Position numbers and translations under genes: made by a program | In this document: positions 17,861 to 53,131 of the stretch, one piece after another | How the letters are laid out: each line of letters begins with the position of its first letter | How positions within the stretch are numbered: the stretch's first letter is position 1 | Source: Lophium mytilinum | Taxonomy: Eukaryota | Length of the DNA: 64,000 bases | Direction: 5' to 3' | Assembly (NCBI GenBank): GCA_010093605.1 | Contig: MU004198.1 | Span: 1,056,726-1,120,725, forward strand | The notes under the pieces: model-generated | Told to the model about the DNA's origin: nothing | Seen by the model: only the letters and a program-made list of their open reading frames with translations | Database searches by the model: none

Positions 17861-19210
17861 TCATAAACTCTTGGGCATCTTTGTCTTCTTGCACACCGGT
17901 TCGTCTTCTCCGACTTCATCTTCTCCCTCCTTGACCTCATCCCGTTTGCGCCTGCTTGAATATTTGTGGGCTTCTGGAGTATATCCGCCGCTGGTCTGCC
18001 ACTCCCCGTCCAGACACTCCTCCCCCAGGCACCCCGGCTTCTGAGCCTCTCTCTGCTCATACTCTTCCTGCTCCGTCTCACTGCCTTGCTCTTGTTGTCG
18101 ATCACGTTGATGATGGTGCTCGCTTATCTGTCGTTTGTCCGGAGCGTCTGTAGCCAAGTCTTCGGGCTTCTGTGACGGAATACCCAAACCTCCTCTCGGT
18201 GATATCGTGGGCACTTGTTCGCGGGTTTGTAGATTTGGAGTCTTCGGGTTCGTGCCGGGACCCGTACTCAACTCTTCTCTGATAGCGCCCGTAGTGATAG
18301 ACAGCGCAGTTGCCCTTGATGCCCGCAAGGCTGTCCTCACCTTGTCCGTGACACGGCAAATGATCTCTCTGTCCTCTTCAAACTTATCTTTAGCCGTGTT
18401 GTTCCGCCTGCTCTGGTTCAGGAACGTCCTCAGAGTGGCATTAATCCGACGCCTGACAACGTCTGACTTGATAGAGCTTCCTAAGCCTTGCTCTGGTCTG
18501 ACGATCTCTTGAGGGGTGTAGAACATGCGAAGCAGGATGAGTGTGGTTCCCGAATGCAGATGGGGTGCGTGATTGAGGATCCGCTCCATTGCACTCTCGT
18601 ATTTCCGTAATCTAGTCATGTCTCCCGAAAAGAGGTCTTCGAGCAGCTCGTCAAGATCGGTTGGACTCTGAATCTGGTTGTATGGGTGTTGTTTGAGAGC
18701 TTCCATGAAACTCCAAGAATCGATATGTCCAGAAGGTGCTTCGGCTGTAGCTTGTTCGTGTGTATCTTTCTTAGGCTGCTCATCGGACTTCTTCTTGCCG
18801 CCTTTGGTGGGAACATAGATGATGCCAAGATTCTGGAGTTGGTCGCCCGCATCCAACGTTGCCTTGAAGAGAGCTCGGTCCATCGGAAAATTGTAATGAC
18901 CTGTGTGGCCACTGCGGTGCATTCCCTTCGCATGCCCAAACAAATGCTCCCCTTTGTCAATTCCGTATTGAAATATCTTGCGCAATAGCTCTTCCTCTTC
19001 CCATAGTAAGGTTGTTACGGAGGAAGGATTGCTTGCGGGAACTGGAGTATCTGAAGCGCCAATGATAGTACGAACAGAGGCGGTCTCGTGAACGGGACTC
19101 GCGCCTGTCGCAGAACTAGTTGCGTTTGCTTGGATAGGTACTTCCAGATCATGGGCACGCGGAGGAGTGTAGCTTTCCCCGCGGGCATGCGTCGATGAAG
19201 TGGCATCCAT
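17861..19210 (-). CDS. Uncharacterised 'APHL-domain' protein, paralogue A (449 aa)
   Basis: LLRKIFQYGIDKGEH..GHY..HPYN..EDLFSGD..ILNHAPHLHSGTTLILLRMFYTPQEI..GSSIKSDVVRRRI, shared with five other ORFs in the window. Confidence 0.8.
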   Translation of the reverse strand: MDATSSTHARGESYTPPRAHDLEVPIQANATSSATGASPVHETASVRTIIGASDTPVPASNPSSVTTLLWEEEELLRKIFQYGIDKGEHLFGHAKGMHRSGHTGHYNFPMDRALFKATLDAGDQLQNLGIIYVPTKGGKKKSDEQPKKDTHEQATAEAPSGHIDSWSFMEALKQHPYNQIQSPTDLDELLEDLFSGDMTRLRKYESAMERILNHAPHLHSGTTLILLRMFYTPQEIVRPEQGLGSSIKSDVVRRRINATLRTFLNQSRRNNTAKDKFEEDREIICRVTDKVRTALRASRATALSITTGAIREELSTGPGTNPKTPNLQTREQVPTISPRGGLGIPSQKPEDLATDAPDKRQISEHHHQRDRQQEQGSETEQEEYEQREAQKPGCLGEECLDGEWQTSGGYTPEAHKYSSRRKRDEVKEGEDEVGEDEPVCKKTKMPKSL

Positions 19211-19720
19211 GGTGGGTGGATAACTCAGAGTTGGTGTTGGTGTTGCGGCGCAGGAGGTGGTGACGGTGGCAAACGCTGTGGTGCTTGAAAGCTTGCGGCC
19301 TTTTGGCTATAGCGCGATGGCGATTCGATTCACACGTGACTGCGCACGGAGGTTGGCACCGTTACCGCTGTGAAAGTTTGTGTCCTCGAAGTAGAATTCT
19401 ACGTTTATGTTGCAATAAATTAACATCAGTGCTGGCAAGTACGTGTCTAGACTCTACCAAAAGCGCCATTGAAGAAGTCAGGGATAGGACTTAAAAGTGC
19501 AATAGCCTACTGAACGCAGATTTTGGAGACTCCAATCATGCTATCTAGAAACAACCCGACAATGATGTGAATGTCCTGCTATACTAACGATATTGAAGCA
19601 TCTGCTCCATGATCCTAGACAGACAGAAGAATGCATAGCTTCTTGGTGGGTCGAAGGTCATTAGTACGTTTTCGCCTTCTTATTCGCCAGCTTCTCACTC
19701 TTTATATACAATTCCCCCTG

Positions 19721-21151
19721 CTAAGCATGGTCCCGCTTACGCTTGGCTGGAGAACTGTAGGATCGCGCAGGAGATCCGGGGGTGGAGGTGGCGCCCTGCG
19801 TCGTAGGCACATTATTCCTTGGATGTTCAGGCTGCGAGGCAGCATAGCCCTCCCTAGGGTTAGGGCCCTGACTTTGCTCCTCCAGAAGAGTTCTCGGGAA
19901 CTCATCAGCCTCCTCATCCTCCGGAAACCCAGCATCCTCATCCTCACCATCAAGCTGGTCCAAGGACATTCTCTCGAGCTCATCAGGCTGCTCATCCTCC
20001 AGAAGCCCGGCCTCCTCCTCATCATCATAATCATGAGATTCATCATCCTCGGATTCATCCTCATCAGCAGCTATTGGCGGTGGAGGCAAGCTCTTCACAA
20101 ATTTCCTAACCCGATTTGCCTCATCCCGGACAAGAGTTCTTGTAACCTCTGTCACCGATGACTTATTGACCATCTTTACCGACTTGTAAAGCCGAAACGC
20201 CACCGAAGAGCAGACTACGCTGCTCCCCAGCTTACGCTCCGCATACGTGATTTTTTCAGGGGTGAAGAACATCAACAAGAGCACATATGTAGCGTTGCAA
20301 TGGAGATGCGGTGTGTACCGGAGGATATACCGCATTGCCTCCTTGTACGGCCTCAGAATCTTCGCGTCTTCTGAGAGAACGTCTTCCACAATTTTCTCGG
20401 CGCGTAAGTGTTTGAAAGGACGTTGACGGTATGCCTCCATGATATTCGAATACAAGATGGGCCGAAGACCTGGATCGCTGGGTGGTTGCCTAGTCGGGAC
20501 GAACACCCTAGGGCCCTCCTCATTAGGCGGGTTGGTCTGAATCGGCCCATTGATTATTTCACTTTGGATTATTGCGTGTCGATAGTATCCAAGTCCCACC
20601 CTTCCCTTCCTGCGTGGGAAGTTCGAACGTTCATGTTCTCCATTGTCGATGCCAGTCTGGAAGATGTCCCGAAGCACTTCTCTCACGTATCTCACTGAGG
20701 ACTGTTGGCCCGCGGATAACGTTTGCGGAAACAGCAGAACTGGGGTAAAAGCCACGTTTACGTTGGGAGCTGGAGGATTCAGAGGGCTCGTCGCACCAAA
20801 GATTTGCGGAAAAGACAATTCAGCGTTCCGATGAGACTGCGTGATGTTACTACGCATATTGAAGGCCTGTGAATCTGCGATCACATTTGTGACAGAGTGC
20901 TGTGAAAAGTCGTTTGCCCGGTATGGTGATGTATATTTTGCGAAAGTACGGCCATAGTGAGTCTGTGGTGCAGCAAGCCGGGCGACAGGCACCCATCCAA
21001 GATACTGAGAGCTATACGTGCGGCCATTTGGAGCTATCGGATACCAAGAAGGGGTCTCATGAAAGTGAGTTGCGGCTGTTGCGGAGCTGGGGGCGACCCT
21101 TTGGAGAAGTACAGGAAGAAAGAGCTCCCACCGCAGAGCCCTGGTGCCCAT
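19721..21151 (-). CDS. Uncharacterised 'APHL-domain' protein, paralogue B (476 aa, acidic tail, C-terminal PAKRKR NLS-like motif)
   Basis: VLRDIFQTGIDNGEH..GYY..RPFK..EDVLSED..ILRYTPHLHCNATYVLLLMFFTPEKI..LGSSV. Confidence 0.8.
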   Translation of the reverse strand: MGTRALRWELFLPVLLQRVAPSSATAATHFHETPSWYPIAPNGRTYSSQYLGWVPVARLAAPQTHYGRTFAKYTSPYRANDFSQHSVTNVIADSQAFNMRSNITQSHRNAELSFPQIFGATSPLNPPAPNVNVAFTPVLLFPQTLSAGQQSSVRYVREVLRDIFQTGIDNGEHERSNFPRRKGRVGLGYYRHAIIQSEIINGPIQTNPPNEEGPRVFVPTRQPPSDPGLRPILYSNIMEAYRQRPFKHLRAEKIVEDVLSEDAKILRPYKEAMRYILRYTPHLHCNATYVLLLMFFTPEKITYAERKLGSSVVCSSVAFRLYKSVKMVNKSSVTEVTRTLVRDEANRVRKFVKSLPPPPIAADEDESEDDESHDYDDEEEAGLLEDEQPDELERMSLDQLDGEDEDAGFPEDEEADEFPRTLLEEQSQGPNPREGYAASQPEHPRNNVPTTQGATSTPGSPARSYSSPAKRKRDHA

Positions 21152-21284
21152 CGTGACGGGACTAGATAGAGCTAGTGTCGAAGTGATAGTTGAGAACTGT
21201 GATGGTGGTAATGAATGTTGTGGTGTACTACGTGGGCGGCGGTGGTGCGCGGTGGGCAGCTCCTGTCTTTTGGCTCAAAGGTAT

Positions 21285-21880
21285 CATGTCACCTGGGCCG
21301 CTCTTGACAACGATGTCGACCTCCTTAAACTTGCACTGCAGCAGTACAGTACAGGCGACAACAGCATGACTTGAGCATGATTACAGGATGATGATTTTTT
21401 TATCTAGGCACGAGTTCAATCATCGGTCTTTGCGGTGTGTGTTTGCTGAGGTGTAATATGTCAACCGGGCCGCTCCTGACAGTGAAGTCGAGCTTCCAGA
21501 CCCAGCGCTCCAGCAGTAGCATATAGGTGCCCAGAGCTCTGACGTACCCCCATGAGCTTCTTTTAAAAAAGACGCGATTTCAAACATCGATCAGCGTCTT
21601 TCGAGATGTCCATTGACTAAAAGGCATTAACTCAACCGGGCCGCTCCTGGCAGTCTTGTCCAGCGTCTAAATCTAGCACTTTGGAAGTAGCGTATTGTTG
21701 CCCAGGGAAAGAATGACCAGAAAATGATATCCTTTCTACTATAAGCTGACTGTAAATTTCTAGTAGCATAATTTTAGGCTTTCTTTTGACTAGAAGACAG
21801 TCTGTCAATCGGGCCGCTCTCTGACGGTGACGTGTAGCTTCTAAAGCTATACTTTAGGTAAAATAGTATTAGTGTACCAA
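21285..21880. repeat. Degenerate ~172-bp tandem repeat (4 clear units, weaker units further right)
   Basis: Core TCAACCGGGCCGCTCCTGACAG-like motif, with GGGCCGCTC at 21295, 21467, 21638 and 21811 (spacings 172, 171, 173). Confidence 0.75.
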
Positions 21881-23279
21881 GATATATCCCGAAATTCATT
21901 TGTTTTCCCATGGCCTATCCACAGTCACTTGCCAACGTTTAAAGTGCCCCCTTGTGAGTCTCAGAATTTGAACACACGATGTCAAATTCTAGGTAATGGC
22001 AGTCGACTTACACTTTAACAAGCTAGCTACCTAAATACAGTAGCGCATAGCATCGAAAGATAGATCCCGGGCAGTATGATATGTATCTTAGATCCTGTTA
22101 CGTTGCGAAAGGCTAGCCTACATTCGTTCAACCACCGTTTTAGGATGCCCCCACGAGTTTTCAAGAGCCTAGACGCGGTGTTAAGATCACTGCGGTGGCA
22201 ATCGAGTAACGCACTTTAAGAGGCCGGCCACCTAGAGGTAAGGGGACTTCTAACAGTAGCATTAAGCCTCTGAGATCCTATAGAAGTAGCATACAGGTAC
22301 CTAGAGCATGACAAGAGGGTAATATAAGATGTTGCAGCCGCACGAACAAGAGGACACAAGCTTGTACATGCCATCTTTACATGTCGTCTCAATTGATCAT
22401 GACGAGCTGAAGCACTACTAACAGCGGTAAGCAGGCCTACTGCCAGCGCGTGAGAGTCTTCTGAAGTAAGGCGTTAAGAGCTTTACATGATCTTCCGACT
22501 ATTAAGATGCGCTGAAGCACCTCTATCCAAACAAGTCATATCGGAGCGGGCCTCTATAAGCCTAGAAAGCTGATCATATGACGGTTTGAAAGATACAAAA
22601 GTAGAGATTAGACTGCCCTTTGCCAGGCTGGCTATCTGCTAGTCAAATAACACCTAACGGTGGCATAGAGTTGGTCGAACAGAGCATGAAATATTGCGTA
22701 TCGAGGCACTCATTCTTGGGCTTCGAATGCTTAAGGTCACTGCGATGTTAAAGTTGAGGTAGCGGGGATTAAGATATGTTTTGGCTGGATAACTACCTGC
22801 TCACTGAGCGACCTCTTACAGCGGTGTTAAGCGAGTAGAAGGTAAGTTCAATCAGTGTAATTCTGGGGCGAGCACCTACGGTTGTCAAAACTCAGATCGC
22901 AACGTGTTGTCACGGTTAAGTCACTGGAGATTAAGCTACCTTTTAGCCAAGCGGAATTATTACGGTTGGGGTACTCTTGACAGCGGCATTGAACAAGCAA
23001 AAGCTAAGATATAAAGATCCTAGTTGGAGGCTAAGTACTAATACGTTTGAAATCAAGATGTGCAGTTTTAGGCTATCAAAATTGCCCTACATCCTAACTA
23101 ACCGATAACTTGTTGGTAGAGCCACTTCTTACGGCGTTGTCATTGAACTAAAAACGAGGTCCGAGCAGCAAAACATCCGTTTAGTAGGTTCTTCAAGCCT
23201 TTCATACCATGTGAAAGCTAGGGTGTTGGAGATTGAACTGCAAGAGACTGTGTCCATTCTTTCAACTCTCACTAGTTGG

Positions 23280-24000
23280 AGCTACCGCAAATGGTACCAA
23301 CCACATGTCGAACCCTTACTCGTAACAACCAGACACATACCTACTTGCCGGCTTCGCGGAGCTATTCGCACTCCCAATCGGCAGGTCAGTTCAGCGCCTG
23401 CAGGCCTTGAATCTTGTTTTTCTTTCTTAGATCTCTCTGAAGCCTCTCAAACGGTACCAACGACCTATCAAACCTTCGCTCAGGAGATGCCTACACGCCT
23501 CTTACTTGCCGGCTTCAACGAGCTACTAAGCCGCCGTTAGAGTAGGCCAATGTTGCACATGTCGCCTTTGATATCGTGTTTACTATTATTCGACCCATTA
23601 AGACACTTCAGACGGTATCATCTGCCTAGAAAAGAACCGTGATTCTAACAGATTCAATATACGCTTTCCAGAACGTGGCATTTTACTTAAAACTTGGTCG
23701 CTACCATAGGGCGCCCCTGACGATGCTGACATACTAGAGAAGCGCGGGTATTTCGCAGTCTCAAACTTACGCTTTCCGGAACGTTACATCGTGTTGACTT
23801 CGGTTGGACCGCTATGTACACCCCAGGCGCCGTCATCCACCTGGCACACCGTCACGTACACGCCCCCTAGTGCCGGCTTAGATGAGCTATTAGACCCCCA
23901 AACACAAAAGCCTATTGCAGTACGTGCAGCTTTTGACATTGTGCTTTCCCATTTTCCAGCCCACATGAGGCCTCTCAGATAGTATCATGCACCTACCAAA
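23280..24000. repeat. Degenerate ~160-bp tandem repeat
   Basis: CA(A/G)ACGGTA(C/T)CA-like motif at 23288, 23448, 23609 and 23976. TACTTGCCGGCTTC..GAGCTA at ~23341 and ~23501, weaker at ~23867. Confidence 0.55.
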
Positions 24001-24242: not shown

Positions 24243-25952
24243 CTAAGATAGAAGTAGCATTAGCTGAGCACGCACAGCCAGCAACCTGAAGGTCGCTTTC
24301 TTGGACGCGTCGACTCCTCCGAGGGCGTTACGCAATGCCTGATCAACACGACGCGTGACATCCTCAATGGTGATCGTGTTGCCAAGATGGTGGTTAGCGT
24401 CTATGATGTCCTGCTCGGAGTGGAAGAAGAGCAGAAGGAGCAACGTGGCGTCCTTATGGAGATGCGGCGCGTAACGAAGAATCGGTATTGTCTGATCCCT
24501 GTACCTCCTTATGGTGTATCGATTCAGAGATATAGCGCCCAAAGTGTCCGCTAGCTGTTCCTTCGGCATGTCAAAGGGATGATTCTTCCTGGCCTCCGCG
24601 AGGTGCGAGGCCAGGAATGGTATGGACACCTGCTCTGTCATCGCGTTGCTCTGAGCATGACCAGACGGGACGAAGGCAAGCATGGTCTCTCTAGGCTCTG
24701 CTCCGGCGCCGGTTGTTCTGCCAAGCATGATGTTCACGATGGCTCGCTGTGGGGATTCCGGCCCGTTCGTAGTTATATAGTGGCCAATGCCTCCGTCTGA
24801 GTACGCCTCTGGCACGCTCTCGGTCATATGTTCATGGATGGAGAGGCCGTATTCGATGATTTGGAGGATCAAACGTGCCTGGGGGATTCGTGGCGGTGGA
24901 GCCAGAGCCGCTCCCTGAATACCGGTGTTTTCGGTAGAGGGACCAGCATTGGGCGAAGTAGGTGCGTCCAGAATCTCCTCGGCGCTGCTATGAAGAACAA
25001 GGTCGAAGGGCGCCGGTGTGCCTGGAACCGAGATCCTAGTGCGGATGTTGTCGCTGAGCTTCAACAGAATATTCCACTGGGTCGGGAAATCTGCCCGCGG
25101 TGTGATGGAGGTAAGGTAGGTCCTGACCCTACCTTTGATCGCATTTATTGAGATGGGGGATCCGGCTTCCTTGATCCTCTCAACCATGTCATTTTGGCTG
25201 AAGAACATGAGGATTAGGCAAATAGTGGAGCGGCGCTGAAGATGTGGCGCGTATTCGATCACCTGCTGCAGGCGCGCTTTGTATCCCGTCAACACCGTAG
25301 CGTCTCCTGCCATCAAGTCTTGAAGAACCTGCTGCAGCGACTCCTTGTTGAATGGGTGTGCCAGCAATGCTTTCGCGACGTTGACAGCGTCCAAGTCAAG
25401 AGTAGTCACCAGCTCCCTCCTACTCTTTTTGTTTCCTGTGCCTTGCCGAATGAAAGCTAGCATGGTGGGTGTGGGAACTTCCTCCTCGGTAGAGGTGGAA
25501 GGAGCCTGCTGCTGTGCCGAGTTGGAAAGCTGTTGCAGAGCTGATTGGACCGCATCTCTCGGGTCATGAGAAATATGCTCGGGAGCATTAGGTATCACCT
25601 CCGCAGACGAACGTTGCGCATCCACAGTCGCAGGAAGAAGCTGCTGCACCTCTAAGCCAGGCCGCAGAATATATCGACCTACATCCAATCGTCCAGTGTT
25701 GAGAGGTATATTATTAACAGCGTGCTCCTCTGCTTTCATGCCGTCGGCGACGATGAGACCTATCACTTCCCTCCAGTTTTCCGGGTCACACACGAGTAGA
25801 TTTTGTTCTTTTGATAACTTGTTGTTCGGGTGCGCTCGAGTGTACTGCTCGCCAGACCTGACAAGCTCCCAGTCTGTCGCGTTGATGGCTTTCTGGTTGC
25901 CTTGCGCCTCGGACGTCTCGGCCATGGCATCTGCGGAAGTGTTGTCGTTCAT
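24243..25952 (-). CDS. Uncharacterised 'APHL-domain' protein, paralogue C, with two tandem copies of the domain
   Basis: Copy 1: GMKAEEH..GRY..HPFN..QDLMAGD..VIEYAPHLQRRSTICLILMFFSQNDM. Copy 2: IIEYGLSIHEH..GHY..HPFD..ILRYAPHLHKDATLLLLLFFHSEQDI. First ATG is at 25952; the ORF is open to 26129. Confidence 0.8.
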   Translation of the reverse strand: MNDNTSADAMAETSEAQGNQKAINATDWELVRSGEQYTRAHPNNKLSKEQNLLVCDPENWREVIGLIVADGMKAEEHAVNNIPLNTGRLDVGRYILRPGLEVQQLLPATVDAQRSSAEVIPNAPEHISHDPRDAVQSALQQLSNSAQQQAPSTSTEEEVPTPTMLAFIRQGTGNKKSRRELVTTLDLDAVNVAKALLAHPFNKESLQQVLQDLMAGDATVLTGYKARLQQVIEYAPHLQRRSTICLILMFFSQNDMVERIKEAGSPISINAIKGRVRTYLTSITPRADFPTQWNILLKLSDNIRTRISVPGTPAPFDLVLHSSAEEILDAPTSPNAGPSTENTGIQGAALAPPPRIPQARLILQIIEYGLSIHEHMTESVPEAYSDGGIGHYITTNGPESPQRAIVNIMLGRTTGAGAEPRETMLAFVPSGHAQSNAMTEQVSIPFLASHLAEARKNHPFDMPKEQLADTLGAISLNRYTIRRYRDQTIPILRYAPHLHKDATLLLLLFFHSEQDIIDANHHLGNTITIEDVTRRVDQALRNALGGVDASKKATFRLLAVRAQLMLLLS

Positions 25953-27165: not shown

Positions 27166-27690
27166 TGTTGGATGAAAAAGCACGCCCCGCCTAAGATTAG
27201 GGGGCCCGGAAAATAAGCGACGTTATATACTCCAACACGCCCCGTAATGGAGCTGTGAGAAGGTTTCAAGTGGCAAAAAGCGTTGTAGCTTGATAATTGG
27301 GGTTGATTAATTGGTGGAAAGATGCAAAAGCGCACCGAGAGATGTATAATATTATGATATTTATGCATAGAGTTATGCTTGTTCCTCCTAGGAGGGTAGG
27401 GAGTGTTTTTTCCCTTTTTTTTTAGAATATTAATTTTTGTGTAGGCGGGACGAGTTTCCATGCAGTTGCGGAAAATCGGAAATTAGTCCTGGTAAAAGAC
27501 TCCCAAGCTGCCTTGTGTGCGTGTCGAACCCGTAAGTTGGTGTTCGCGCTGGCTAGTCATGGGTGTAGTCTGGTGTGCTAACCAAGTGGACCATCCGGGG
27601 GCAACCGGGCTCATAACCTGTTGGATGAAAAAGCACGCCCCGCCTAAGATTAGGGGGACCGGAAAATAAGCGACGTTATATACTCCAACA
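27166..27690 (-). mobile_element. Complete miniature non-autonomous Copia-type LTR element (TRIM-like), 525 bp
   Basis: Two 72-bp LTRs (27166-27237, 27619-27690) differ at 1 position, each with TGTTGGA...TCCAACA termini. PBS GGTTATGAGCCC lies on the minus strand at 27607-27618, and a short purine-rich tract (ACGGGGCG) abuts the other LTR. 5-bp TSD GGGGG. The 381-bp interior has no gag/pol motifs. Confidence 0.9.
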
Positions 27691-28845: not shown

Positions 28846-29805
28846 TCAAAAGAGCGTCGAACGGAACCACTTCTGGGGGATCCTCCCGCTCTGCGCCAAG
28901 TCCCGGAGCGCTTGGACAGCAAGCGGCGCCGGTATCGTATCGTCTTGCAGCCTTTTCCTCACCCGATACGCCCCCATGAACAGAATCCGCTTCTCTACGC
29001 GCACGTCGGGCTTTCCAAGTATCATCTTCAAGGCGCGCTCAATCCGGTTGTCTATACCAGGGCGTTCGATATAGTTCCCAAGCAAGCTCAAAGCTTGCGC
29101 AATGTCTTCAGTGTCTCGATAGAGGAGGATGAGACAAAGGGTAGCCCCCTTCAGCATCAGGTGTGGCGCGCTGCGCAGCATCTTCCGGACGCAGGTGTCG
29201 TGTTTCTTGAACGCCGCAGCGTCTCCGCACAACACGTCGGCGAGGAGCTTTACGGGAGACACGTCGTTGAATGGGTGTTTATCCACCGCACGCACGAGGT
29301 CTTTTGCCGCAATCGGGGCCAGATTGACGGACATCGGTGATTTGGCGAACTTCACTGTGATAGGCGGGGTAGAGTAGAGGACGATGCCGGCCACGATCCG
29401 TCGAGTGTCGTGTGTTCCGGCCGCCCAGTCCAGAATAGCCAGAGATGCACCTCTGGGGTCGCCGCCGGTCATGCGGTAGTATCCGGCGCGGCATGCACCG
29501 TGCTGCAGATGGAAGAGTTGGTGCTCGCTGTGCTCGAGACCCCACTCAATGATCTTTGCGAGTAGCACGGCTAGGTTCTCCGGATCGACGAACTCTTCAT
29601 TCTCCTCGGCCGTGTAGTGGGCCTTTCGGGTGCCTGGGGCGCGAGATCTCTTGATAGCCTTCTTGGCAGTAGCAGATTCTGAGACAGTTAGCGGATCATT
29701 GCGCCCATAGTGGGTAAGATTGTGCGTACTGTGTGTGGCTCTGCTGACCTGCATAGCCGGCACGTCGGGCTGCACGGGCAAGGAGGGGAGACCAGACGCA
29801 GACAT
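28846..29805 (-). CDS. Uncharacterised 'APHL-domain' protein, paralogue D
   Basis: LLAKIIEWGLEHSEH..GYY..HPFN..ADVLCGD..MLRSAPHLMLKGATLCLILLYRDTEDI..GNYI..NRIERAL..RLQDDTIPAPL. First ATG at 29805. Confidence 0.8.
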   Translation of the reverse strand: MSASGLPSLPVQPDVPAMQVSRATHSTHNLTHYGRNDPLTVSESATAKKAIKRSRAPGTRKAHYTAEENEEFVDPENLAVLLAKIIEWGLEHSEHQLFHLQHGACRAGYYRMTGGDPRGASLAILDWAAGTHDTRRIVAGIVLYSTPPITVKFAKSPMSVNLAPIAAKDLVRAVDKHPFNDVSPVKLLADVLCGDAAAFKKHDTCVRKMLRSAPHLMLKGATLCLILLYRDTEDIAQALSLLGNYIERPGIDNRIERALKMILGKPDVRVEKRILFMGAYRVRKRLQDDTIPAPLAVQALRDLAQSGRIPQKWFRSTLF

Positions 29806-33260: not shown

Positions 33261-33656
33261 ATGCGTCCCCGGCAACACCACCCCACCGCACTCCTCCTCT
33301 TCCTCCTCCTCTTCCACTTCTTCATGGCCGCCCTCGCCCACCCGCCAACCCTCACACCACCACTCCCTCACCACGTCGCCCACCACGCCTCCCGCGCCGC
33401 CCGCACCACCAGCGACGGCAGTAGCAGCAACAGCAGCTCCCACGCCCCCGCGCCAACAACACCAAAGCCTACAATAGGCCCCATCCCATCACCGCCGGCG
33501 ACAATGGCTCTGACCAAGCCGCCCCTCACCAAGCCCACCGCGTATGTCAACATGCGGCTGAACAAGCACCTGAGCGGCACGAAGCGGCAGGAGTACGTGC
33601 GGGAGAGGGCGGCGTTTTATAGGAAGGAGGGTTATGAGGTCGAGGTTGTGTGGTAG
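33261..33656 (+). CDS. Small putative secreted protein (131 aa)
   Basis: ATG in CACCACCATG context. Signal-peptide-like LLLFLLLFHFFMAALA, Pro/Thr/Ser-rich linker, short globular C-terminus. Confidence 0.55.
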   Translation: MRPRQHHPTALLLFLLLFHFFMAALAHPPTLTPPLPHHVAHHASRAARTTSDGSSSNSSSHAPAPTTPKPTIGPIPSPPATMALTKPPLTKPTAYVNMRLNKHLSGTKRQEYVRERAAFYRKEGYEVEVVW

Positions 33657-33744
33657 ACTGGGGAGCCGGGGGGGGAGGGGCTGCGGAAGGAGTAGGAAGT
33701 GTTTGGGCAAGGGGGGTTTTGCAGAAGAAAAGGGGGAGTTTCAG

Positions 33745-33835
33745 GCTTGGACAGCAAGTTCTGTTCAGGGGGGCTTTGTATCTCGAGGAGCGGCTGTGCG
33801 ACGACTCTATCCCTGCGCCGTTGAACCTCGGGGAA
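33745..33835 (+). pseudogene. Relic of the C-terminus of an APHL-domain paralogue, inverted relative to paralogue E
   Basis: Encodes LGQQVLFRGALYLEERLCDDSIPAPLNL versus LEQKILSKGALFLEKRLYDDTIRAPLEL in E. Nucleotide similarity to the reverse complement of ~34660-34745 is visible. Confidence 0.7.
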
Positions 33836-34616: not shown

Positions 34617-35378
34617 TCAGCGGGGGATGTTGTAGGCTTGCATAGCAATTTGCAGAGATGCTAGTTCCAACGGCGCACGGATCGTATCATCATATAGTCG
34701 CTTCTCGAGAAACAGAGCCCCCTTGGACAGAATCTTCTGTTCAAGACTGACATCTGTTTCATCATAGATAGACCTTAGTGACATTCTGATTCGGTTACTG
34801 ATGGCACCAGCGCCTATTGAATTGCCTTGCTGCGTGACGGCGGTCGCAATTTCTTGCGTAGTATACAGCATCCGAAGAAGACAAAGGGTGCCGCTCTTGG
34901 CTTGAAGATGGGGCGCGTACTCGAGTATGGCCTTGAGGCGATATCTATATTCGTTGACGACCACGGTGTCCCCGCACAAGATGTCTTCGACAATCTTCTC
35001 GGCACTGTAGGTATTCAGAGGGTGGCGAGCTACGGCTTTGGCAATGTAGGCCACTGGGATCGCTCGTAGTGGAGGGTCGATGCCGTCCAACACGTCCGAG
35101 GGTGAGTATTCCACAAATACCGTGGGGTGGTTGCGATAGTCATGCACAACGTCGACCGGATCCCGCCCATTGTTGCCCCCAACAATCTTGTAGTACCCGG
35201 TATCCGCGCTCGCGTGCTGCATTATACTGACATCGTGCTCCCGGTTGTGTTTTGCGAACCGAAGTATTTTGTACAGCAAGTCAACTAGCTCCCCGGGGTT
35301 CTTCAATCTCCATTTTTGGGCAGCTGACAATCTGGCCTTGCGGCTCGTCTCGCCAGTCTGCTGTGTATTTGCTGACAT
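34617..35378 (-). CDS. Uncharacterised 'APHL-domain' protein, paralogue E (253 aa, essentially domain only)
   Basis: LLYKILRFAKHNREH..GYY..HPLN..EDILCGD..ILEYAPHLQAKSGTLCLLRMLYTTQEIATAVTQQGNSIGAGAISNRIRMSL. Confidence 0.8.
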   Translation of the reverse strand: MSANTQQTGETSRKARLSAAQKWRLKNPGELVDLLYKILRFAKHNREHDVSIMQHASADTGYYKIVGGNNGRDPVDVVHDYRNHPTVFVEYSPSDVLDGIDPPLRAIPVAYIAKAVARHPLNTYSAEKIVEDILCGDTVVVNEYRYRLKAILEYAPHLQAKSGTLCLLRMLYTTQEIATAVTQQGNSIGAGAISNRIRMSLRSIYDETDVSLEQKILSKGALFLEKRLYDDTIRAPLELASLQIAMQAYNIPR

Positions 35379-41300: not shown

Positions 41301-42334
41301 GGAGAAGTCGGGGTCGCCCTTCCCCCCTGTGGCGGCCATGTCAACATCAACACCATGGCCACGAATATGATACGCCGGAGGGCCAGCTACGACGACGAAG
41401 CAGTAGTAGAGTGAATATAAAGCTCTATCAGTCGTCTACTACCCGGTCTGCAGTGTATTCGGGTGCAAAAGGAAGCTCGACCGGCTGTTGTTACCTCCGC
41501 CTCACCTCCGCCCTCCGCGTTCAGGTAGGGATCCTTACTTGCACCATCAGGCCACGCACGACTATCCGGGCTGAATATCGGTCACTCGGAGCTCTAGAAT
41601 CAGGAATGTTCTCCCATGATAGTCTTACAAATAGGATGAATTAATTAGCTACTACCTCATCCATGTAGACTCCAAAATGGCCGGCCCAGTCACCCCTGCT
41701 ACACCCTCTGCCCATCAAGCCTCACAGCCCTACCACGATGCGCCTCTCTGCCGATCTCCCATCTCAGGTATACTCCTCACACTAGATTTAGATAATTAGA
41801 CACTCAAGCTCGCATTTCAAGGATTGATCCTATCATGACAATCAGCTGAAAATTAAAGAGCGCCTCAGAGAGACATACTCGAACGGCGGTTTGCACAACC
41901 GTTTTGGTGTATGCGAACATTAGCCTCGATTAGTAAAAGAACGCATCTCCGGCAGTGGTAAAGTGGTCTGTGGACCTTCTGACACTTATTCTGGCCTTTG
42001 GTACATCAGCAGATTGAGATGGTTATTTATAATAAAAGATTGACGACATTATGGATCGATAGAGGCCGAGGGGAATATAGTTGCATAATAGCAATTACTA
42101 GTTGTAGAACCTTTCCCCTACCGCCGATTTGTAATAAGATCGAAAGTCAGCAAGTACAGAAAGAGAGAGCTTATAGCCAAAACGGAGGACGGATTACGCA
42201 AAGCGATTAATTACCTTCGGGTTAATTTAAATCCTGCGGAAGATGCCGTTATTAAGGCTATTGCAATACTAACGGGCCGAACAGGGTACAATAAACCGCG
42301 GCACCAAACATTCAAGATTCCCAACAAGGAGAGG

Positions 42335-44340
42335 GTGAGGCTCCGGGAGAATCTAGTCGCCGATGCCCGCTATAATGTTTACTTGGGTTCACCGTCCCTT
42401 TACTATAGATACGAAGAGACCACCAACTGTTCCCTCTACGCCTGTCTTCCTATGTCGGAGGCCAACATATCTGCTTTTAGTAGTGCATATGTATATATAG
42501 TTAGGCAAGACGATTTAGGGTACAACAGTACCGCTGAGGCTCGCGCGGTGTTAAGGATACCGGAGAACAACATAAGACCAAAGATTCCGGGGATGCAGAG
42601 CGGCATGTATCTGATGGGTCACCAGATAGATAGCGTCGCCTAGCTCTTGGAGAGGCTATACCAGCTCGCAGGTTGTATCCTTGCTGATGGAATTGGGGCT
42701 AGGGAAGTCCATTCAGCTTCTGGCCATAATCGTGGAACCGGTGCTGCGCCGAGATAACCGAACAAAATCTGACAAGCTCGGAAGTCGTGCCGCCGGGGGC
42801 GGTAAAGATGTGGGTGGAACAGGCCAGCAAGATCTTGCCCGCGGATTGTGAGATCAAGGAGTACTCGAATACAGACGCCACTACCTGGACCCCTTCCGAT
42901 TCAATGTTCGACGGGTCGGAGGAGTCGTGTAAGATTGTCCTCATTTCTTCCTGGACCGTCCTTCAAACTCGGCATTCCTATATCGCCTGGAAAAACGATA
43001 TGTGTGGCAAGCTTTGGCCGCAATGGCGACACAATCTCACGGACTGTTACTTTTATATCAAATTCTTTGACGAAGCTCATCGGCTGAAGGACCCGAAAGG
43101 AATCACGAATGATGTCGTAGGGTTGGCAACCTAGGATCAGGGATTCCAGACAATCCAGGAGGAGTTTAATATACCTCCTCCAGACAAGGACCCCTTCGAC
43201 TATGCAGACGACGAGCCGGAGCCAGATGCCATATGCAATGAATCAGCGATCGTGAACTACCCCAGTGGTGGCAAGAAGGGAGCAGCTGCTGTCCAGGAGA
43301 AGTCGGACCGGCTGTTTCGCGTCTTCAAGAAGATGCTGCTGGCAAGGTCCTTTGCCAGCGTCGTCAATGGGCGGAAAATAGGAATCGGAATACCTGCGCT
43401 GTACGGGACAGGTTGTTGTCAAAGCAGAGGGCAATGCTGAGGCAAAGTTGCACGAATATATGGACCAGCCCAAAGAGGAGCTGTTTTCATTCAAAGTTTA
43501 CAAGAGACGTGGGCGAAATAGCGACTATGCTTCAGAGGAGCCCGCGCTGACTTTCTCTCCGCCTTCAATCCGATCCGTCAACCAGGGAAGTTTCTTCTTC
43601 CCGTTGTTTCATCTCCCGTCCGTCAATGGCACGAAAGCTATCGCTACACTCCGAGCTGAGATGCGGAAGTCCGGGATGCTTGGGACCCGCCGACTTCGAC
43701 ATGTTATGAAGTTCATATTTGACGCAATCAAAAAAGATGCTCCTCGTGGAAGACCGGCAACAGCCGTTGCACTAACTACTCTAGCCATGGGGTTCAATCC
43801 GAGGAATCTTTCCGACGCCGACCTGCTCAAAGAGGTCGTTGATCAATCACCTAAGCTGAAACAGTTGGCGTTTGAGCTAGGCATCAAGACGGTCGTCGAG
43901 AGATGAAATTGTTGTCTGGACTCACTGGTCTTGGGTCCAGTTGCTGACCGAAGTCTTCCTAAAGCAATCGGGATCATCGTGCTTTCTCTCCACGCAGGGA
44001 ACAAAGACCAGCAGGCGACCATCGAAGCGCGATTCACGACTGACAATGAGCACATGGTCCTAACGTCCCACATGGTCGCTGCCGAGGCAGGCAAATACCG
44101 TCTCTGTTGTGCTGATGTGATTTGTCTGGAATCAGCAGACAGTGATCCCAGGTTCTGGCAGGCCGTCTATCGCGTTCTTGGGATTAGATAAGAGCTCCGT
44201 CGGCATCTCAGTATTCACGTGCAGGCCAGCACTAACGACACTGCATTCATATCAAATATGCTCGTGAAAGACTTCCCTAGGGCGATCACCATCGTAGCAG
44301 ACGACGCAGTTGTCAAAGCGATGCTGAGGAAGCCCTGATG
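42335..44340 (+). pseudogene. Degraded SNF2-family (SWI2/SNF2) helicase/ATPase
   Basis: LMGHQIDSVA*L (Q-motif with TAG where TGG is expected), GCILADG/frameshift/GLGKSIQ (motif I), VVPP, FDEAHRLK (motif II), SPKLKQL and QAVYRV (motif VI-like). Multiple stops and frameshifts. Confidence 0.8.
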
Positions 44341-45749: not shown

Positions 45750-46649
45750 TTCACGCTCCCCGAGCATGCTTCATACCATTCAACCATTGCACTCGTTTCG
45801 CCAGGCCTAAATCAATTTCTCAACTTCCTCAGTCCACGCCTTCAAAATTGCAAGAGCCTTCTCAATCTACTTCACTTGCTTGTCCAACTTTTCAGCAAGT
45901 TGCATAGCGGACGCTTCCTTTTCCTTGTATGTTTGTCCCGTTTCATCATGCGACTCGAAGCCAGCTGCATCGAGCTCATCGTACCACTCCGCCAAATAAC
46001 GTTGCCAAAGGACGGCATCTTTGGTACACCCCAACGCCACTTTCAGCTCACCAAGCCCACGCTCTCCTAGGCTAAGGGTATAGCGGTAAGCCTCGACGGT
46101 ATCATGAGCGTCTATGGCATTCCACCCTCCAATAGGATGGTCCTCGTCAGGATGGGCAGCCCGCTCTGGCCTAGCAAAGCTTGCGCGGATCAAGGTCTTC
46201 ACAGCCCTATGACGAGCTTTGCGGGACTTCCTGTGGGCATAGCGCGCCTGGCTTGCCGTGACCCAAGCCCAACTGTCCGGACCGCCCGGCATTCTCGTGG
46301 TAAAGCACCTCGGAGCGAGTAAGGGGTTGGACGGATCGCGTTCGGGCTGATGGGGTGGACGCTTAAAGGGGGGCCATTGTGTGACGGGGGTGCTGTAAGC
46401 TCGCTGGGAGTTCTCACGGGCGGTGTGCTGCGCGTGCTGTCTATCAAAGGCAGCGCGCTTCTCGTCATCGGAAAGGACTTCGTACGCATTCTGTAGGTTT
46501 TTGAATTTTTCTTGGCCGGCTGCCTACTTAGAGGGGTCACGGATCTTGTCCGGATGATAGACGCGGGCGAGATGATAGTAGGCTTTACGAATAGTAGCCA
46601 CATTTGCATCTTGTGGGACGCCCAGGATTTGGTATGGGTTTGGCTCCAT
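45750..46649 (-). pseudogene. J-domain (DnaJ) protein paralogue 1, disrupted by nonsense codons
   Basis: [60 protein letters not shown]. The TAG at 46524-46526 aligns with Gln in the neighbouring paralogue (DPTKQAAG). The same frame continues to further TAGs from 45869 downward. Confidence 0.8.
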
Positions 46650-47085
46650 CTGTAGTGATGGGCCGGCAAGGTTGCTTTTGAGAGTTGTGAAGGTTGTGCA
46701 GGATTCTGTAGGGTGGTCTTGTGATGTGCGACTCGACGTAGTGTGGCGAGTTGAGGCTCGAACGAGCTGTGACACTTGGTATCATTTTACGCTGGATTTT
46801 GTATGCATTGAGGGCGCAGATAGGCGGTGAAAGTGGAAGCTGATGATGCAATAGCAAAGGGGTGACGGCAACTCTTCAGCATTGTGTGAATTGGCACACC
46901 TGATTCCCTGGACAGGCATGGCCATCACGGGACTGCAGATCGCTGCTAAATGGTCATTCACCTAGATACTGAGGTAATGAGTGACAATCATGTATATAAG
47001 GAACTATTCCACGCCACCAAACCACTCCACTTCCAGGCTTATACACACCACACGCCACCATCACAACACACTTCTTGCTATCAAA

Positions 47086-47931
47086 ATGGCACCATCCCCA
47101 TACTCAGTCCTCGGTGTTTCTCATGACGCAAATGCTGCTGATATTCGGGCCGCCTATCACCGCATGGCGTTAAAATGCCACCCCGATAAGATCCAGGATC
47201 CCACCAAACAAGCTGCAGGGGCTGAGACATTTAAAGACGTCCAGGCTGCATACGAGGTTCTGAAAGATTCTACAATGCGTTCTGCCTTCGACCGCGAATA
47301 CGCAAGCAAACACCAACCCCGACAATCCCAGCCCTTCAAAACCAACAAAAAGCGCTCGGACAGCTACAAGGCCTACGGAGACAACCCGATCATGTACGCT
47401 ACTTACCAAAGCACCGCTATGTCCGCGCTACGAACTGCGGATGCGCTCGTGGCAGCCTCGCTCCTCAGCTATGCTCTCGCGAAAATGGCTTTCGAACGCG
47501 CCTTAGCAGTTGTCCCAATACATTCCGGCCGCCCTAGTGACTACAGGCACCTTTTCGATCAAATGCCAGTCAAGGACTTTCATGAAGCAACGCGCACGAC
47601 TGCTTCAGCGTGGATTAGGGCTATTGGATCGGGACGCGTGGCCGTTGAGAAAGCGGTCCTCACCTCGAGGCAGCAGAAGCAGGCGGTGATGGCACTCGAG
47701 CTAGCCTTGAAGAGCTTCAGATGGTGTGCAGAACATAGTCAGGGCTTGGAGCAGACGGAAATGATAGCAAAGAAGCTTAGTTGCACGGCGAAGATAGAGG
47801 AGATGAGAGCGAGCGCAAGGCAAAGCAAAAATCAGCGGAAGGCGTGGGAGGAGAGCGTGCGGGGTTGGGAGGCTGTGAGAAATGAGTGGTTGTGTGAGCG
47901 AGCTAAGTTCACGCCCTTGAGGCCTTTGTAA
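47086..47931 (+). CDS. J-domain (DnaJ, class C) protein paralogue 2 with helical C-terminal domain
   Basis: MAPSPYSVLGV..IRAAYHRMALKCHPDKIQDP..FKDVQAAYEVLKD..RSAFD, with intact HPD motif. Intronless; divergent from paralogue 1. Confidence 0.85.
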   Translation: MAPSPYSVLGVSHDANAADIRAAYHRMALKCHPDKIQDPTKQAAGAETFKDVQAAYEVLKDSTMRSAFDREYASKHQPRQSQPFKTNKKRSDSYKAYGDNPIMYATYQSTAMSALRTADALVAASLLSYALAKMAFERALAVVPIHSGRPSDYRHLFDQMPVKDFHEATRTTASAWIRAIGSGRVAVEKAVLTSRQQKQAVMALELALKSFRWCAEHSQGLEQTEMIAKKLSCTAKIEEMRASARQSKNQRKAWEESVRGWEAVRNEWLCERAKFTPLRPL

Positions 47932-48935
47932 GTACATGAAGGGGAGAAGATGTTCGGTGTTTCGAATTTCGATTAGGCTACAGTACTAAGCCACAAGTCT
48001 GGGCACATATATTCATTACAGCTTGGCCTCAACTTGCTCACTCGACACTACTGTTGGGGGTACCCTGGCTGTTGAGCAGGCAATTTGTCAAGAGGTAGTC
48101 CAATCTGCACTGCTTGAACCTCGACATCACCCTTGGATCTTCGAAATCCTGTGGGGGAACCCCATGCGGTGTCGAGCTAGTGTGCCCAGACTTGTGGCCT
48201 GTCACTGTATGTGGTCTTTGAGATTGATGGATGCATCATATATCGGCTGAGAGTAAGCCGATGACATACAAAGCTGGACAGGCCTATACAGCCAGCATTG
48301 ACGATACAGATCCGGCAAATAGTTTGCAGTCTGGGGCGGTTGCTTGAATTTCATAGCTTACAAGATACTCTATACTCAGCTCAACATGAGCTGTCTAGCT
48401 TCATTTTCCTCGTGTATCACATGAACTTACAGTCTTTCTCTAGTGGCTGAAGCTGAAGAAACTAACTTCGTCACTCTACACACGTGAAAACTCTACTAGA
48501 GGGCGGAAGAGAAGATGCTGAAGTGGCAGAGACCAATGGAGGATTTGGATAGACTAAGTGAATTTCGTCAGCTTAAATACTGTACGCTCGGCGATAAGGA
48601 GGAGGTGCTTCGACAAATGGGTTTCATATCAAAGGATGATTTGGGGAATCTGTGGGAGACGTAGAGGAATAATATGTTTTCGCCGCTTCTTGGGAGAAGC
48701 CACACGAACATCGTGGTTGGCCGATATCCACGACAAACATTATGCAAATCTTTGGAGCAAGATAGAAGAAGCATTGATATCAATTTCTATGAACTTTTTC
48801 TAAGTTTTGGGTGGATGGGATCACCTCTCGGGCCTGTCATTACGGCTGGTTTCTGTTTATTCCAGGTGTTGTATAGGACTAACTGCCTACAAGGCTTGCC
48901 AGAACTAGCTACCAATACTCTACACCTGCAGACTC

Positions 48936-50076
48936 CTATTTAGCCAACTCTTGATACCAAGCAGCAGAGAGATCACGCCACTTGTCACGATTGCTAGCCC
49001 ACTTAGTTTCCATCTCCTTAGTCTTATCTACTAAGTCTCGGACATGTGCCCGCTTTTCCCTGCAAATCGCTTCGTGCGTGTGGAACCCAGCTTTGTCGTG
49101 TCGGCGATCGAACACACTCTGGTTGTTCCAAAGCTTGTTGAACGCTTCTGCGGCTTTCTCTAAAGCTACGACGCATTCTGCTCTATCTTTGGCAGCAAGA
49201 CGGTGGTAATTGGAGGCAGTCATCGCATGAATTGCGGCTTTGCCATACGCATCAGCCGTCATCTTGGCCTTCTCGCGACGCCAGTCCGTTCCAGCTGCAT
49301 ACCTCGGCATTCCGTCTAGATACTCACGATGCCTCGAGGGATGATCCATCAGGAGCACCCCACGGCACTTCCTCTGCTTCAGTGCGGGCTTTGCGACCTT
49401 GCCGAGCCAAGTTCTCAGCACGTTCAAACGCTTGAGAAGCAGCGTCGCGGAGCGAGAAAGCGTGGAGGACTTCTAGCTCTGGGGGCATGGCTGACGCGCT
49501 GGGCTTTGGGTCACTGTTTGCAGAATCAGTGCTCGGCTTTGGGAAGCCGAAATTGACGTTGGCCCATTGCTTTTGAAACTTTGAACCAGCTTCTGAAGGG
49601 GTATTCGTTGAAGTACCTGTTTTAGGAGCACCTCCTTGGGAATGAAAGCTAGAGGACGCGAATCCGGAGGAAGCATTCCTAGAGACTTTCTCCTTAGGTG
49701 GTGCATGAGATTTGGTCCCAAAAGAAGCGAATCGTGAGGGGCGAGGGTCTGGGCTAGCTGGCCTGGGAACTCGTGGGCTACCCCCAGTCTGGGATTCGGA
49801 AGAATCGTGCTTAGAAGCTGTCTTTGCTGAAGCCGCTGATGTATGGGGTGCTGGGGTACGGTTGAGCTCAGCGCGTTCGGTGTCGTCCTTCAGCAAATCA
49901 TAAGCGGCCTGCACTTGCCGGAACCTTTCTTGTCCCTCTGCACGTTTAGCCGGATCTTGTTTCTTATCTGGGTGATTGAGGAGCACCAGTCGCTTATATG
50001 CTCTTCGAATGTCGTTTTGGTCGGCATTGCGCGGGATGCCTAGGACGGCCCAGGGGTCGGAAGAGTGAAAGGGCAT
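48936..50076 (-). pseudogene. J-domain (DnaJ) protein paralogue 3, apparently frameshifted near 49330-49400
   Basis: DPWAVLGI..IRRAYKRLVLLNHPDKKQDP..FRQVQAAYDLLKD in ORF 49324-50076. The C-terminal helical domain resembling paralogues 1 and 2 (VALE.., AGFHTHE, W-rich end) lies in the overlapping frame 48936-49427. Confidence 0.7.
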
Positions 50077-50659
50077 GGTGGTGTGGGGGCTGACGTTGCA
50101 CTTCCGCGGCGACGAGGCGATCAGGAATGATCGACTTGAAGGCGTCTATATACGTTGCTTGAGCATAGGTGAAAGTAGGAATATCTATATGATCATGTGA
50201 CTAAATCATGCGCATTGTGCAGAGATAGTGAGTGCTACAAGGTTGGGATGCATTTGGGATAACTTTCACTACGGCCAGAAGTGATGTATTGTTGACTATG
50301 TGGTTGAGGGTACGTCTCGCTATATTTTGTTCTATTCTAGAGCAGTATTATTCTATTCGAGACAGCAACGCCCTTTGCATCATGCTTATTTCGTAGTTAC
50401 CCTGATTAAACAAGCATTCATGGCTGCCCATTACAATGATTCAGCTAGCCATGCCGTAGAACAACTCTATGTATTGGCTGCTGTTGCGGATGCGCGAGGT
50501 GGATTCTTTCCTTCACTGGTGTCTACCACTGGCCCCACGTTACACGTGATTTTGGCGCTAGCGTGGGGCTAGCATAGCCGAATGCTGATGGGATGAAATG
50601 ACCTCGGCGCCAAGCCTATCAACCTCAAATCGTAACATGTAGTCGGTATATTTTGACTC

Positions 50660-51030
50660 TATCAACACACTTCAGACAGTACCAACTACATGTTAATGCC
50701 CAGTGAATCAAACTTGTCATAAATGAACCCTCACGCCTTGAACATGCTTTGCAAGGTTTTCAATCGCTTTCAAGACCCCTCAGACGGTACCATCACCCTG
50801 CCAACCCCTCACAAATCACCCCTATTAGATATGAACCCGCGCGGTTATGAGACCCTACGCTGGATTCCGTGACACCTTCGGGACAACTCAAACGGTGTTA
50901 CACAGCTGGTGAAGGCTTGGACGTGAATTTTGTAATATTTGAGTCCTCGTGCTTCTAACGTGGTGTTGTGCAGATTCTGCCTTCCAAGACCACTCCAGAC
51001 GGTACTGACTCCCTGCCAACCCGTCGTAGA
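50660..51030. repeat. Degenerate ~108-bp tandem repeat
   Basis: CA(G/A)AC(G/A)GT motif at 50673, 50781, 50889 and 50996. CCCTGCCAACCC follows two of the units. Confidence 0.6.
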
Positions 51031-52255
51031 TTATCCCTGTATATATCCACAAGCCCTCGTGCTCCTAACATTATTCACTCGTGGTTTCGGTTCTTAGTTC
51101 GCAGAAATAGATTTAGTTTTTTTGGCCCTCTTCCGAAGTATCAATCCTTCGCTCCCAGTAAATCTCCAATTCCACGTGACCACGTCTACGAAGGACCTCA
51201 ACTCGGTGCCATTCCGTCCGGATCCTGGCCTGGCAGCAAAGATATCAGAGCAAGTTTACTCGTGGTACGCCCATTTCACAAAGATAGTCTCGCTGTGAAT
51301 TCGTGATCTGAAAGGCACGACGGCATAAGTGAGCGGGGTCTGGTCAGGGCTCTACGACAACCCCTTTTCCCTCTCTTGAATCTAGATAGCCGCAATAATG
51401 TGCCAGCCGGGGTATCGGGGCAGCATGTGGTCGTCTAACGGGTGGCGCTGAAGTACTATTCAGGTAGTCAAGCCACCTCTGTCGGCCTGGTCAAGTTATG
51501 GCTGCATCTGCTCCGCTCCTCATACTGACAGCGTTGAAACTCGACTTGGTATCCAGAATCGTATCGATGAGCGCTAGAGAGCCATTTTGAATAGCGCTCC
51601 GTGCAGTCTTGAGCTTGTCTTTGCCACTTCATCAAGCCGGCGCTGACGGTGGCAACTAGCAGCCAAAATAAGTTGAAGTTAGGTCGACTTCGTAGCATGA
51701 TGCCTTGATGCTGACGATCGCGCCTCCAATTCATGTAACCGTGCGAGCGTGGCCTATATAAGGCCGCCTTTAATGCAGCCGTGAACAATTCCTTGCACAC
51801 TCAACCCAGCTCCAAAGCGGCAAGCAGGACCCATAGCAAGACCATACTTCGTCGGATTCACGCTCCCGTGGCTGCTGCCTTCAGACAGGTGGCCTCGATG
51901 AGAGCGTAGGACTGAAACGGCCCTCTTCTTGACCTATCTCCGAAGGGGGGTGAGTCGGACGTTCACGTGCGTGACTTTCACACTGCACGGACTCTCTCCC
52001 GACGTCCTCTTAACTCTTCATCCTCCTCGCCCTCGCAACCTCCTTCCTCCAACAACCACCACCGCCCGCACAGTAAGTCAACAACGATCCTCTTCGTCTT
52101 CACCAAGCCCTCGTCTTTGTGAAGCTGACCCCCCCTCGCAAGCAAGCTCTTCTTCGCCCAGCAGACTCTTCTGCGCACAAAAAGGTTCTTCCTCACCGAA
52201 CGAACACCACAACACCACAACACCACCCCATCTCACCGCCACACCATCACCAACA

Positions 52256-53131
52256 ATGCCTCCCAAGAAACAGAAGACCCAGCATACCCAGCATACCCAG
52301 CAGAGGGTAAGAACGGTCGTCGACAGAGCGAAGTTCCACCCCCTCCTCGTCGACATCGTCGCCCGCATCGTTCAGATCGACCAGCTCGGCGGCTCCTGTG
52401 TCCCCATGGACGCAGACAAGTGCCACTACGAGTTCTGTACACCGGCCGACCGCAACAAGGCCCGCGACGCCGGCTTCCCCACCGCCCGCCTCGCCATCAC
52501 CCATACCCTGTACCCGCACACCAAGCCGAGCAACGAGACCGAGGAGCCCCCCAAGCAGCCGCCGCCAGACGTGCGCGTCATCTACATCCCCGAGCGTCGA
52601 CGCGAGGACTACAAGAACCTCGACAGAAGCACCCTCGCCCCGCGCCAGATCGGCACCATCGGCATCGCTCTGCGTGCCTCCCCGTTCGTCCAGTTTCCAG
52701 CCGGCCTGTTCGCCGACGCGGTCTGCATGGGGCACAAAGTCGTCCGCACCATGTTCGAACCGTTCGCCCGCATGGTCCTCGAGGCCGCGCCGCACTTGCA
52801 CATTGATGCCATGTTGCTGTACATACCACTATTCGTCCCAACCACGGACGTCGCCAGCACGGCCGACAAGAATGGGTACGGGTTGGAGAAGGATGTGTGG
52901 GTGACGAGGCGGGACGATGCCCTCAAAGTAATCCGCGATACGGTCGCCGATGCAGGGAGCGAAAAGGCCAAGAAGGAGCTCTTGGAGAGGAAGGACACGC
53001 TGCAGGCGCTAAGGCGCTACATTGGGGAGATTCTTGCTGCGCCGGTGGAGGAAGAGGAGGACTCCGACGAGGAGAAGGAGAAGGCAGCGGAGAAGAATGA
53101 GGACGTGGCAATGAAGGACGTTGCCGAGTAG
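52256..53131 (+). CDS. Uncharacterised 'APHL-domain' protein, paralogue F (most divergent)
   Basis: MPPKKQK..LLVDIVARI..CHY..VIYIP..ALRASPF..ADAVCMG..VLEAAPHLHIDAMLLYIPLF..TTDV..RRDDALK, acidic tail. The ORF is open upstream to 51929, but that part contains splice-like signals. Confidence 0.7.
   Translation: MPPKKQKTQHTQHTQQRVRTVVDRAKFHPLLVDIVARIVQIDQLGGSCVPMDADKCHYEFCTPADRNKARDAGFPTARLAITHTLYPHTKPSNETEEPPKQPPPDVRVIYIPERRREDYKNLDRSTLAPRQIGTIGIALRASPFVQFPAGLFADAVCMGHKVVRTMFEPFARMVLEAAPHLHIDAMLLYIPLFVPTTDVASTADKNGYGLEKDVWVTRRDDALKVIRDTVADAGSEKAKKELLERKDTLQALRRYIGEILAAPVEEEEDSDEEKEKAAEKNEDVAMKDVAE

Follow-up and report, generated by a model that had tools for sequence, protein, structure and literature searches.

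A clustered family of divergent genes in Lophium mytilinum shares an unnamed domain with a conserved protein of Pleosporomycetidae

What keeps a group of neighbouring genes open and recognisably related when the sequence between their shared motifs has diverged so far, and where did such a group come from? The question is raised by a 64,000-nucleotide stretch of the Lophium mytilinum genome (contig MU004198.1, assembly GCA_010093605.1; hereafter the window), in which an initial annotation described six open reading frames (ORFs, genes A to F) carrying seven copies of one domain, together with a relic. Several lines of evidence described below indicate that these genes have slowly evolving relatives elsewhere in the Pleosporomycetidae, here called the core family. 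We put at about 0.5 the probability that the core protein is a nuclear DNA-binding protein with a C-terminal module resembling a helix-turn-helix (HTH), and that the cluster consists of old copies in which the scaffold was kept and the binding surface changed.

Seven related domain copies in six genes

All six ORFs were located with coordinates and strands unchanged from the initial annotation; the cluster comprises the following features, with P numbers denoting database proteins from Mytilinidion resinicola and other sources.

Gene A, 17861..19210, minus strand: 449 amino acids; domain at about 18314-19003; C-terminal tail acidic and basic.
Gene B, 19721..21151, minus strand: 476 amino acids; domain at about 20084-20710; acidic tail with a terminal basic patch; orthologue P0012 (37% identity).
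Gene C, 24243..25952, minus strand: 569 amino acids; domains C1 at about 25020-25802 and C2 at about 24252-24902; two-domain orthologue P0009 (48%).
Gene D, 28846..29805, minus strand: 319 amino acids; domain at about 28936-29601; orthologue P0011 (59%).
Gene E, 34617..35378, minus strand: 253 amino acids, almost all domain (about 34683-35315); sister to D.
Gene F, 52256..53131, plus strand: 291 amino acids; divergent subfamily lacking the EH and HP motifs; domain at about 52307-53026; orthologues P0003 (74%) and P0004 (56%).
Relic, 33741..33828, plus strand: inverted stretch from the 3′ end of a gene resembling E; 76% nucleotide identity to E over 88 nucleotides.

The homology of the seven copies is significant in every comparison. 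Pairwise phmmer gave single-pair E-values of 1e-11 to 1e-40 among the six minus-strand domain copies and of 1e-5 to 1e-7 between F and the others. In a leave-one-out analysis, a hidden Markov model built from six copies was searched for the seventh in 1619 six-frame segments of the window, and all seven were recovered at 1e-9 to 1e-35 (A 7e-32, B 6e-33, C1 6e-27, C2 3e-27, D 2e-35, E 2e-35, F 1e-9). Beyond the six ORFs no segment had an E-value below 0.006, the top one being the relic. The relic is itself genuine, its match to E reaching 1e-14 within 4.6 kb with mismatches scattered across the codon positions (6/29, 6/30 and 9/29); a second in-register E-like match at 33468-33569 was not significant (E 0.56).

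The motif order first described for the copies holds throughout, and the basic patches reported in the proteins are present. Other features of that description need amendment. The histidine of the HP motif, supposed to occur in every minus-strand copy, is replaced by arginine in B. Gene F does lack EH and HP, but it is not a decayed member, being the best conserved of the cluster between species. The coding regions are intronless as far as the domains are concerned, but not as whole genes in the public models, which fuse B to A through a predicted intron and give C upstream exons. An N-terminal stretch common to A, B and P0012 favours A and B as separate duplicated genes despite the fused model.

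A conserved core family and an old set of copies

With the seven copies as query, a word-based search returned four proteins among 7912 candidates, namely E, F and two F-like proteins, and HMMER run in full over 1.84 billion representatives gave 17 matches. Five of these 17 correspond to genes of the window, either as such or inside gene models (three labelled Lophium mytilinum by the source), and three are proteins of Mytilinidion resinicola with near-consecutive accessions. Core members first surfaced in the weak tail of the cluster-only profile, at E-values of 1e-7 to 1e-3. An alignment of six such weak-tail proteins retrieved at least 52 matches among 7999 scored candidates, a mixed alignment at least 55 among 8000, and hhalign joins the core and cluster profiles over 153 columns with a probability of 96.9 and an E-value of 1.6e-10. 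Every named source is a genus that we place in Pleosporales, Mytilinidiales or Gloniales, Parastagonospora and Corynespora among them, so that the family cannot be called lineage-specific, as had been proposed. Examples are OCK93342.1 of Cenococcum geophilum (P0022), HBI56_165190 of Parastagonospora nodorum (P0085), BU16DRAFT_175216 of Lophium mytilinum (P0080) and BDZ99DRAFT_574146 of Mytilinidion resinicola (P0081), the last two being 80% identical and each on a contig other than that of the cluster. The sources list core members as hypothetical proteins. They share the domain, its predicted topology and residues P252, H253, G282 and R293 with the cluster; they differ from it in having two additional N-terminal helices and in evolving slowly, whereas the window copies stand in tandem and have lost most of the invariant polar residues.

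The expectation that the domain belongs to no named Pfam family is borne out, with nothing above noise for the six window proteins, the 54 core members or trimmed segments. PDB sequence searches with three family profiles gave no match, one (E 0.13) and none; PHROGs and NCBIfam gave just single-member noise among 24 members; and the ESM Atlas, where a blank is uninformative, held no match at or above 0.9 for E and none usable for P0022. The literature text contained no match to the six locus tags, supplements with possible expression tables lying outside that search, and none on the fungal Clr5 domain as a helix-turn-helix. The domain family is thus undescribed in the literature and databases searched.

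The core gene stands without an adjoining paralogue in 25 of 25 metagenome loci of 2-21 kb each. Families were assigned to four of 16 neighbouring ORFs (M28 peptidase, Na/Ca exchanger, ribosomal S17 and BBC1-like), and these neighbours offer no functional clue. Upstream of the core gene in locus L002 lies a transposase-like fragment (8183-8653), presumably hAT dimerisation-like. Additional divergent copies occur in Lepidopterella, at other sites in Lophium and in two further samples. In Lepidopterella palustris a very divergent member (P0016) is apparently on the same contig as the core gene (P0078), which suggests an independent local duplication next to it.

Four proteins of Mytilinidion resinicola are orthologues of cluster genes: KAF2806355 (P0009, gene C), KAF2806356 (P0012, B), KAF2806358 (P0011, D) and KAF2806365 (P0003, F); a separate orthologue of A or E was not found there. 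Their near-consecutive accessions, and their apparent co-location with the F-like and iron-containing alcohol dehydrogenase (Fe-ADH) proteins of that species, indicate that the cluster is common to the two genera, with C and B apparently swapped in Mytilinidion by accession order. Against 92% identity for the Fe-ADH, the cluster orthologues range from 74% (F) through 59% (D) and 48% (C) to 37% (B).

The main tree, of 42 rows drawn from 82 domains, places the core on one side of a branch (98/97) and pairs B, C1, C2, D and F each with its Mytilinidion orthologue, with starred support, so that the copies predate the split of the genera and the expansion is old, as had been surmised. The core part of the tree follows species groups. 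The path between orthologues measures 0.15 in the core, against 0.32-1.47 in the cluster copies, which have therefore evolved 2-10x faster. Long branches meet in this tree, as the tool warned, and its deeper order is unsure. In a second, quick tree of 31 rows, with three divergent rows left out, the cluster attaches basally to the Mytilinidiales/Gloniales core members; descent from the Mytilinidiaceae core was not rejected on that tree (approximately unbiased test, p 0.144), which is compatible with such a descent and no proof of it.

Selection appears to have kept the frames open, as the initial annotation had argued. When random point substitution was simulated to the observed identities, without insertions or deletions and against Mytilinidion sequences that are gene models, the frame remained open in 0 (B), 0 (C), 4 (D) and 33 (F) of 500 runs, which supports selection to keep the cluster proteins. 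Motif columns are more conserved than the rest in every orthologue pair (for D, 25/31 versus 122/189), with the columns taken from a family alignment that contains these same orthologue rows. Repeat-induced point mutation (RIP) was considered as a cause of the divergence and set aside: the six ORFs carry no remaining signature, although old RIP can be erased, and their composite index of -0.49 to -0.77, as defined in an excerpt of PMC12910237, is like that of neighbouring housekeeping genes.

Fast evolution, retained frames and the gain and loss of genes (the A/B and D/E duplicates, the E-like relic), along with more divergent copies in Lepidopterella, at other Lophium sites and in other samples, would also fit a conflict system (for meiotic drive or antidote, for allorecognition or for genome defence) that had a conserved nuclear protein as its source. 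We consider this doubtful. None of the six proteins matches the HET, NACHT, kinase or nuclease families of Pfam, the RIP signature is missing, and orthology is stable between the genera, not reshuffled; judged from the sequences, the one-to-one orthology of five copies looks more like an old, fixed specialisation than rapid turnover.

In the metagenome loci the core domain itself contains no intron, and retroposition is thus unneeded as an origin. The same feature would suit a family that goes back to a transposase's DNA-binding part and was domesticated before the Pleosporomycetidae radiated, as would the spacing T-x2-E-I-x3-hydrophobic-x3-G-x2-I-x3-T-I-x-(H/R)-R, which we take to resemble the second HTH of Tc1/IS630/IS3 transposases. 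Such a descent is very improbable: no member matches a transposase family of Pfam (six ORFs, 54 core members), no terminal inverted repeats were found around the cluster genes, the family profile does not score the IS3 HTH in L026, and the core tree tracks species groups.

Predicted fold, retained residues and candidate function

AlphaFold models of gene E (predicted local distance difference test, pLDDT, 78.8; predicted template modelling score, pTM, 0.79) and of the core protein (pLDDT 88) place helices and strands in the same order, although the alignments behind the models do not overlap. The domain is accordingly predicted to be mostly helical, about 240 residues long and well folded. In both models DSSP assigns three consecutive C-terminal helices with a glycine-containing turn before the third, and the glycine, G282 in the Cenococcum numbering used throughout, is invariant; the HTH-like layout suggested for the C-terminal part is thus present in the two predictions. 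Its assignment as an HTH would rest on predicted helices, conservation and weak structural matches. Weighing against it, the Pfam HTH cut-offs are passed by none of six window proteins, none of 54 core members and none of 14 trimmed segments. Searched by tblastn against plasmids, the HTH segments gave two records at E 8 and then none, and a plasmid rank test for HTH likeness was negative, at low power and in a sample without annotated IS630.

How the copies differ from the core was compared over 65 core and 14 cluster domain rows, excluding three other divergent rows. Core and cluster alike have P252, H253 and G282 in every row and R293 in almost every one, and the copies retain the structural residues. 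The core has 35 polar sites conserved at 95% or more, and just four of them (H213, D233, H253 and R293) are kept by at least half of the 14 cluster rows; on average, these rows retain 17% of such residues. The cluster copies are therefore homologues of the core protein but probably not its functional equivalents. The helix after G282 hardly varies among core proteins but has changed in each cluster copy, and in several copies the segment is neutral or acidic.

We propose that the six genes arose long ago by duplication from a conserved Pleosporomycetidae protein and have evolved fast; the conserved protein would reside in the nucleus and bind DNA through its C-terminal HTH-like module, in which two short helices and the invariant glycine turn are followed by a helix with exposed residues that hardly vary in the core. 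One copy may have moved to the window locus in an ancestor of Mytilinidiales and then duplicated in tandem, the copies keeping the fold while their surface was replaced, putative recognition helix included. On this view each copy would serve either as a regulator with a new specificity or to modulate the core protein, and those with a neutral or acidic segment may act as modulators and not as binders.

The conserved polar residues of the core span segments 114-127, 183-199, 252-259 and 282-296, which exceeds the need of one recognition helix, and the top matches of the HTH-segment profile are protein-binding helical domains. The domain could accordingly be a protein-interaction or chromatin-adaptor module, with lightly constrained copies kept for dosage or minor roles in a duplication-prone region; a second local expansion, of three J-domain genes, lies in the same window. 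This is a minor possibility that deserves to be kept in mind. Light constraint does not agree well with five domain copies retained one-to-one over two genera, nor with the excess conservation of motif columns given above, and a helix rich in S, T, H and R after a glycine turn is typical of nucleic-acid contact.

The histidines themselves invite a different function, a metal-binding or catalytic fold. H253 occurs in all 65 core rows and all 14 cluster rows. H213 is likewise fixed in the core, and both H213 and D233 persist in 10/14 cluster rows; the core additionally has C215, D249, D256 and a D/N-rich loop. However, the EH motif aligns to P108-W109 of the core, so its histidine, at first suggested as a possible ligand, is confined to the cluster and is no family-wide ligand; hardly any copy retains C215, D249 or D256; H213 is missing from F and its orthologues; and H253 sits in a Pro-His helix-cap context. 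Such a function seems improbable.

Returning to DNA binding, in a stronger form of the proposal the core would represent a fungal class of sequence-specific DNA-binding proteins not described before, with its own fold and conserved in crop pathogens of Pleosporales, and the cluster would be a re-specified bank with new recognition helices for genome defence or self/non-self control; we regard this extension as questionable.

Surroundings of the cluster and comparison with known systems

Pfam matches among the window neighbours are Fe-ADH, J-domains, BCS1-type AAA, PNP_UDP_1 and CorA-like, and an Rfam scan of the window gave no match. In one sequencing run, presumed to be of RNA, a contig covered the Fe-ADH neighbour and none covered A to E, F being beyond the stretch; this has no bearing on expression. 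The cluster is flanked by a stand-alone PNP_UDP_1 phosphorylase-domain ORF (8294-9391) and a BCS1-type AAA ATPase (56885-58720); PNP_UDP domains are effector parts in fungal proteins like the NOD-like receptors (NLRs). The J-domain expansion covers 45867-50076, with genes at 46990-47931 (plus strand) and 49324-50076 (minus) and a split one at 45867-46786 (minus), whose C-terminal parts look unrelated. A region described as full of pseudogenes does contain broken frames at 42-44 kb and 45.9-46.8 kb, but that description extends to more than the part checked. Those at 42092-44191 form a series on the plus strand with a DEAH-like motif, five pieces of which have no Pfam match; they may represent a decayed helicase/SNF2-type gene.

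Between C and D, at 27166-27690, two 72-bp direct repeats, 99% identical and with TG...CA ends, enclose about 380 bp and have five G on either side; a solo copy of the repeat (81%) lies at 12772-12843. Contig depth about tenfold higher and many loose ends there indicate a multicopy element, and it looks like an inserted miniature long terminal repeat element of the TRIM type (terminal-repeat retrotransposon in miniature). At 10783-10926 lies a short tandem array whose period is about 22 nucleotides. The minus-strand ORF at 60140-63625 (1161 amino acids, no Pfam match) has an aromatic-rich, seemingly internally repetitive N-terminal half, an acidic low-complexity other half and a C-terminal hydrophobic segment.

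These results define an unnamed, confidently modelled domain common to Pleosporomycetidae. Two of the species that have it, Parastagonospora nodorum and Corynespora cassiicola, are genetically tractable, so that the function of the domain is open to test by ordinary knockout. The cluster offers a natural experiment with one slow parent and at least five old copy lineages, the scaffold kept and the surface replaced. If DNA binding is true, the family would be new to the catalogue of fungal transcription factors.

Among known systems, the 'helical bouquet' HTH variants of JBP1 and MogR are described, in an excerpt of PMC3141245, as having five helices with the recognition helix across the bundle. 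Compared with the J-DNA-binding domain of JBP1 and with MogR, the present domain shows 8% identity, a high root mean square deviation and a score tied with unrelated rows, and it has 150 further residues with a small beta sheet and no dioxygenase domain. It differs from the fungal allorecognition and spore-killer systems (het/NLR, Spok) in that the six proteins match none of the HET, NACHT/NB-ARC and kinase/nuclease toxin domains. The spacing of hydrophobic, glycine and arginine positions is, we presume, akin to that in the second HTH of Tc1/mariner, IS630 and IS3 transposases and in fungal Clr5. Unlike these, the family has neither a Pfam match nor a DDE domain in the six ORFs and 54 core members, and it is a stable host gene.
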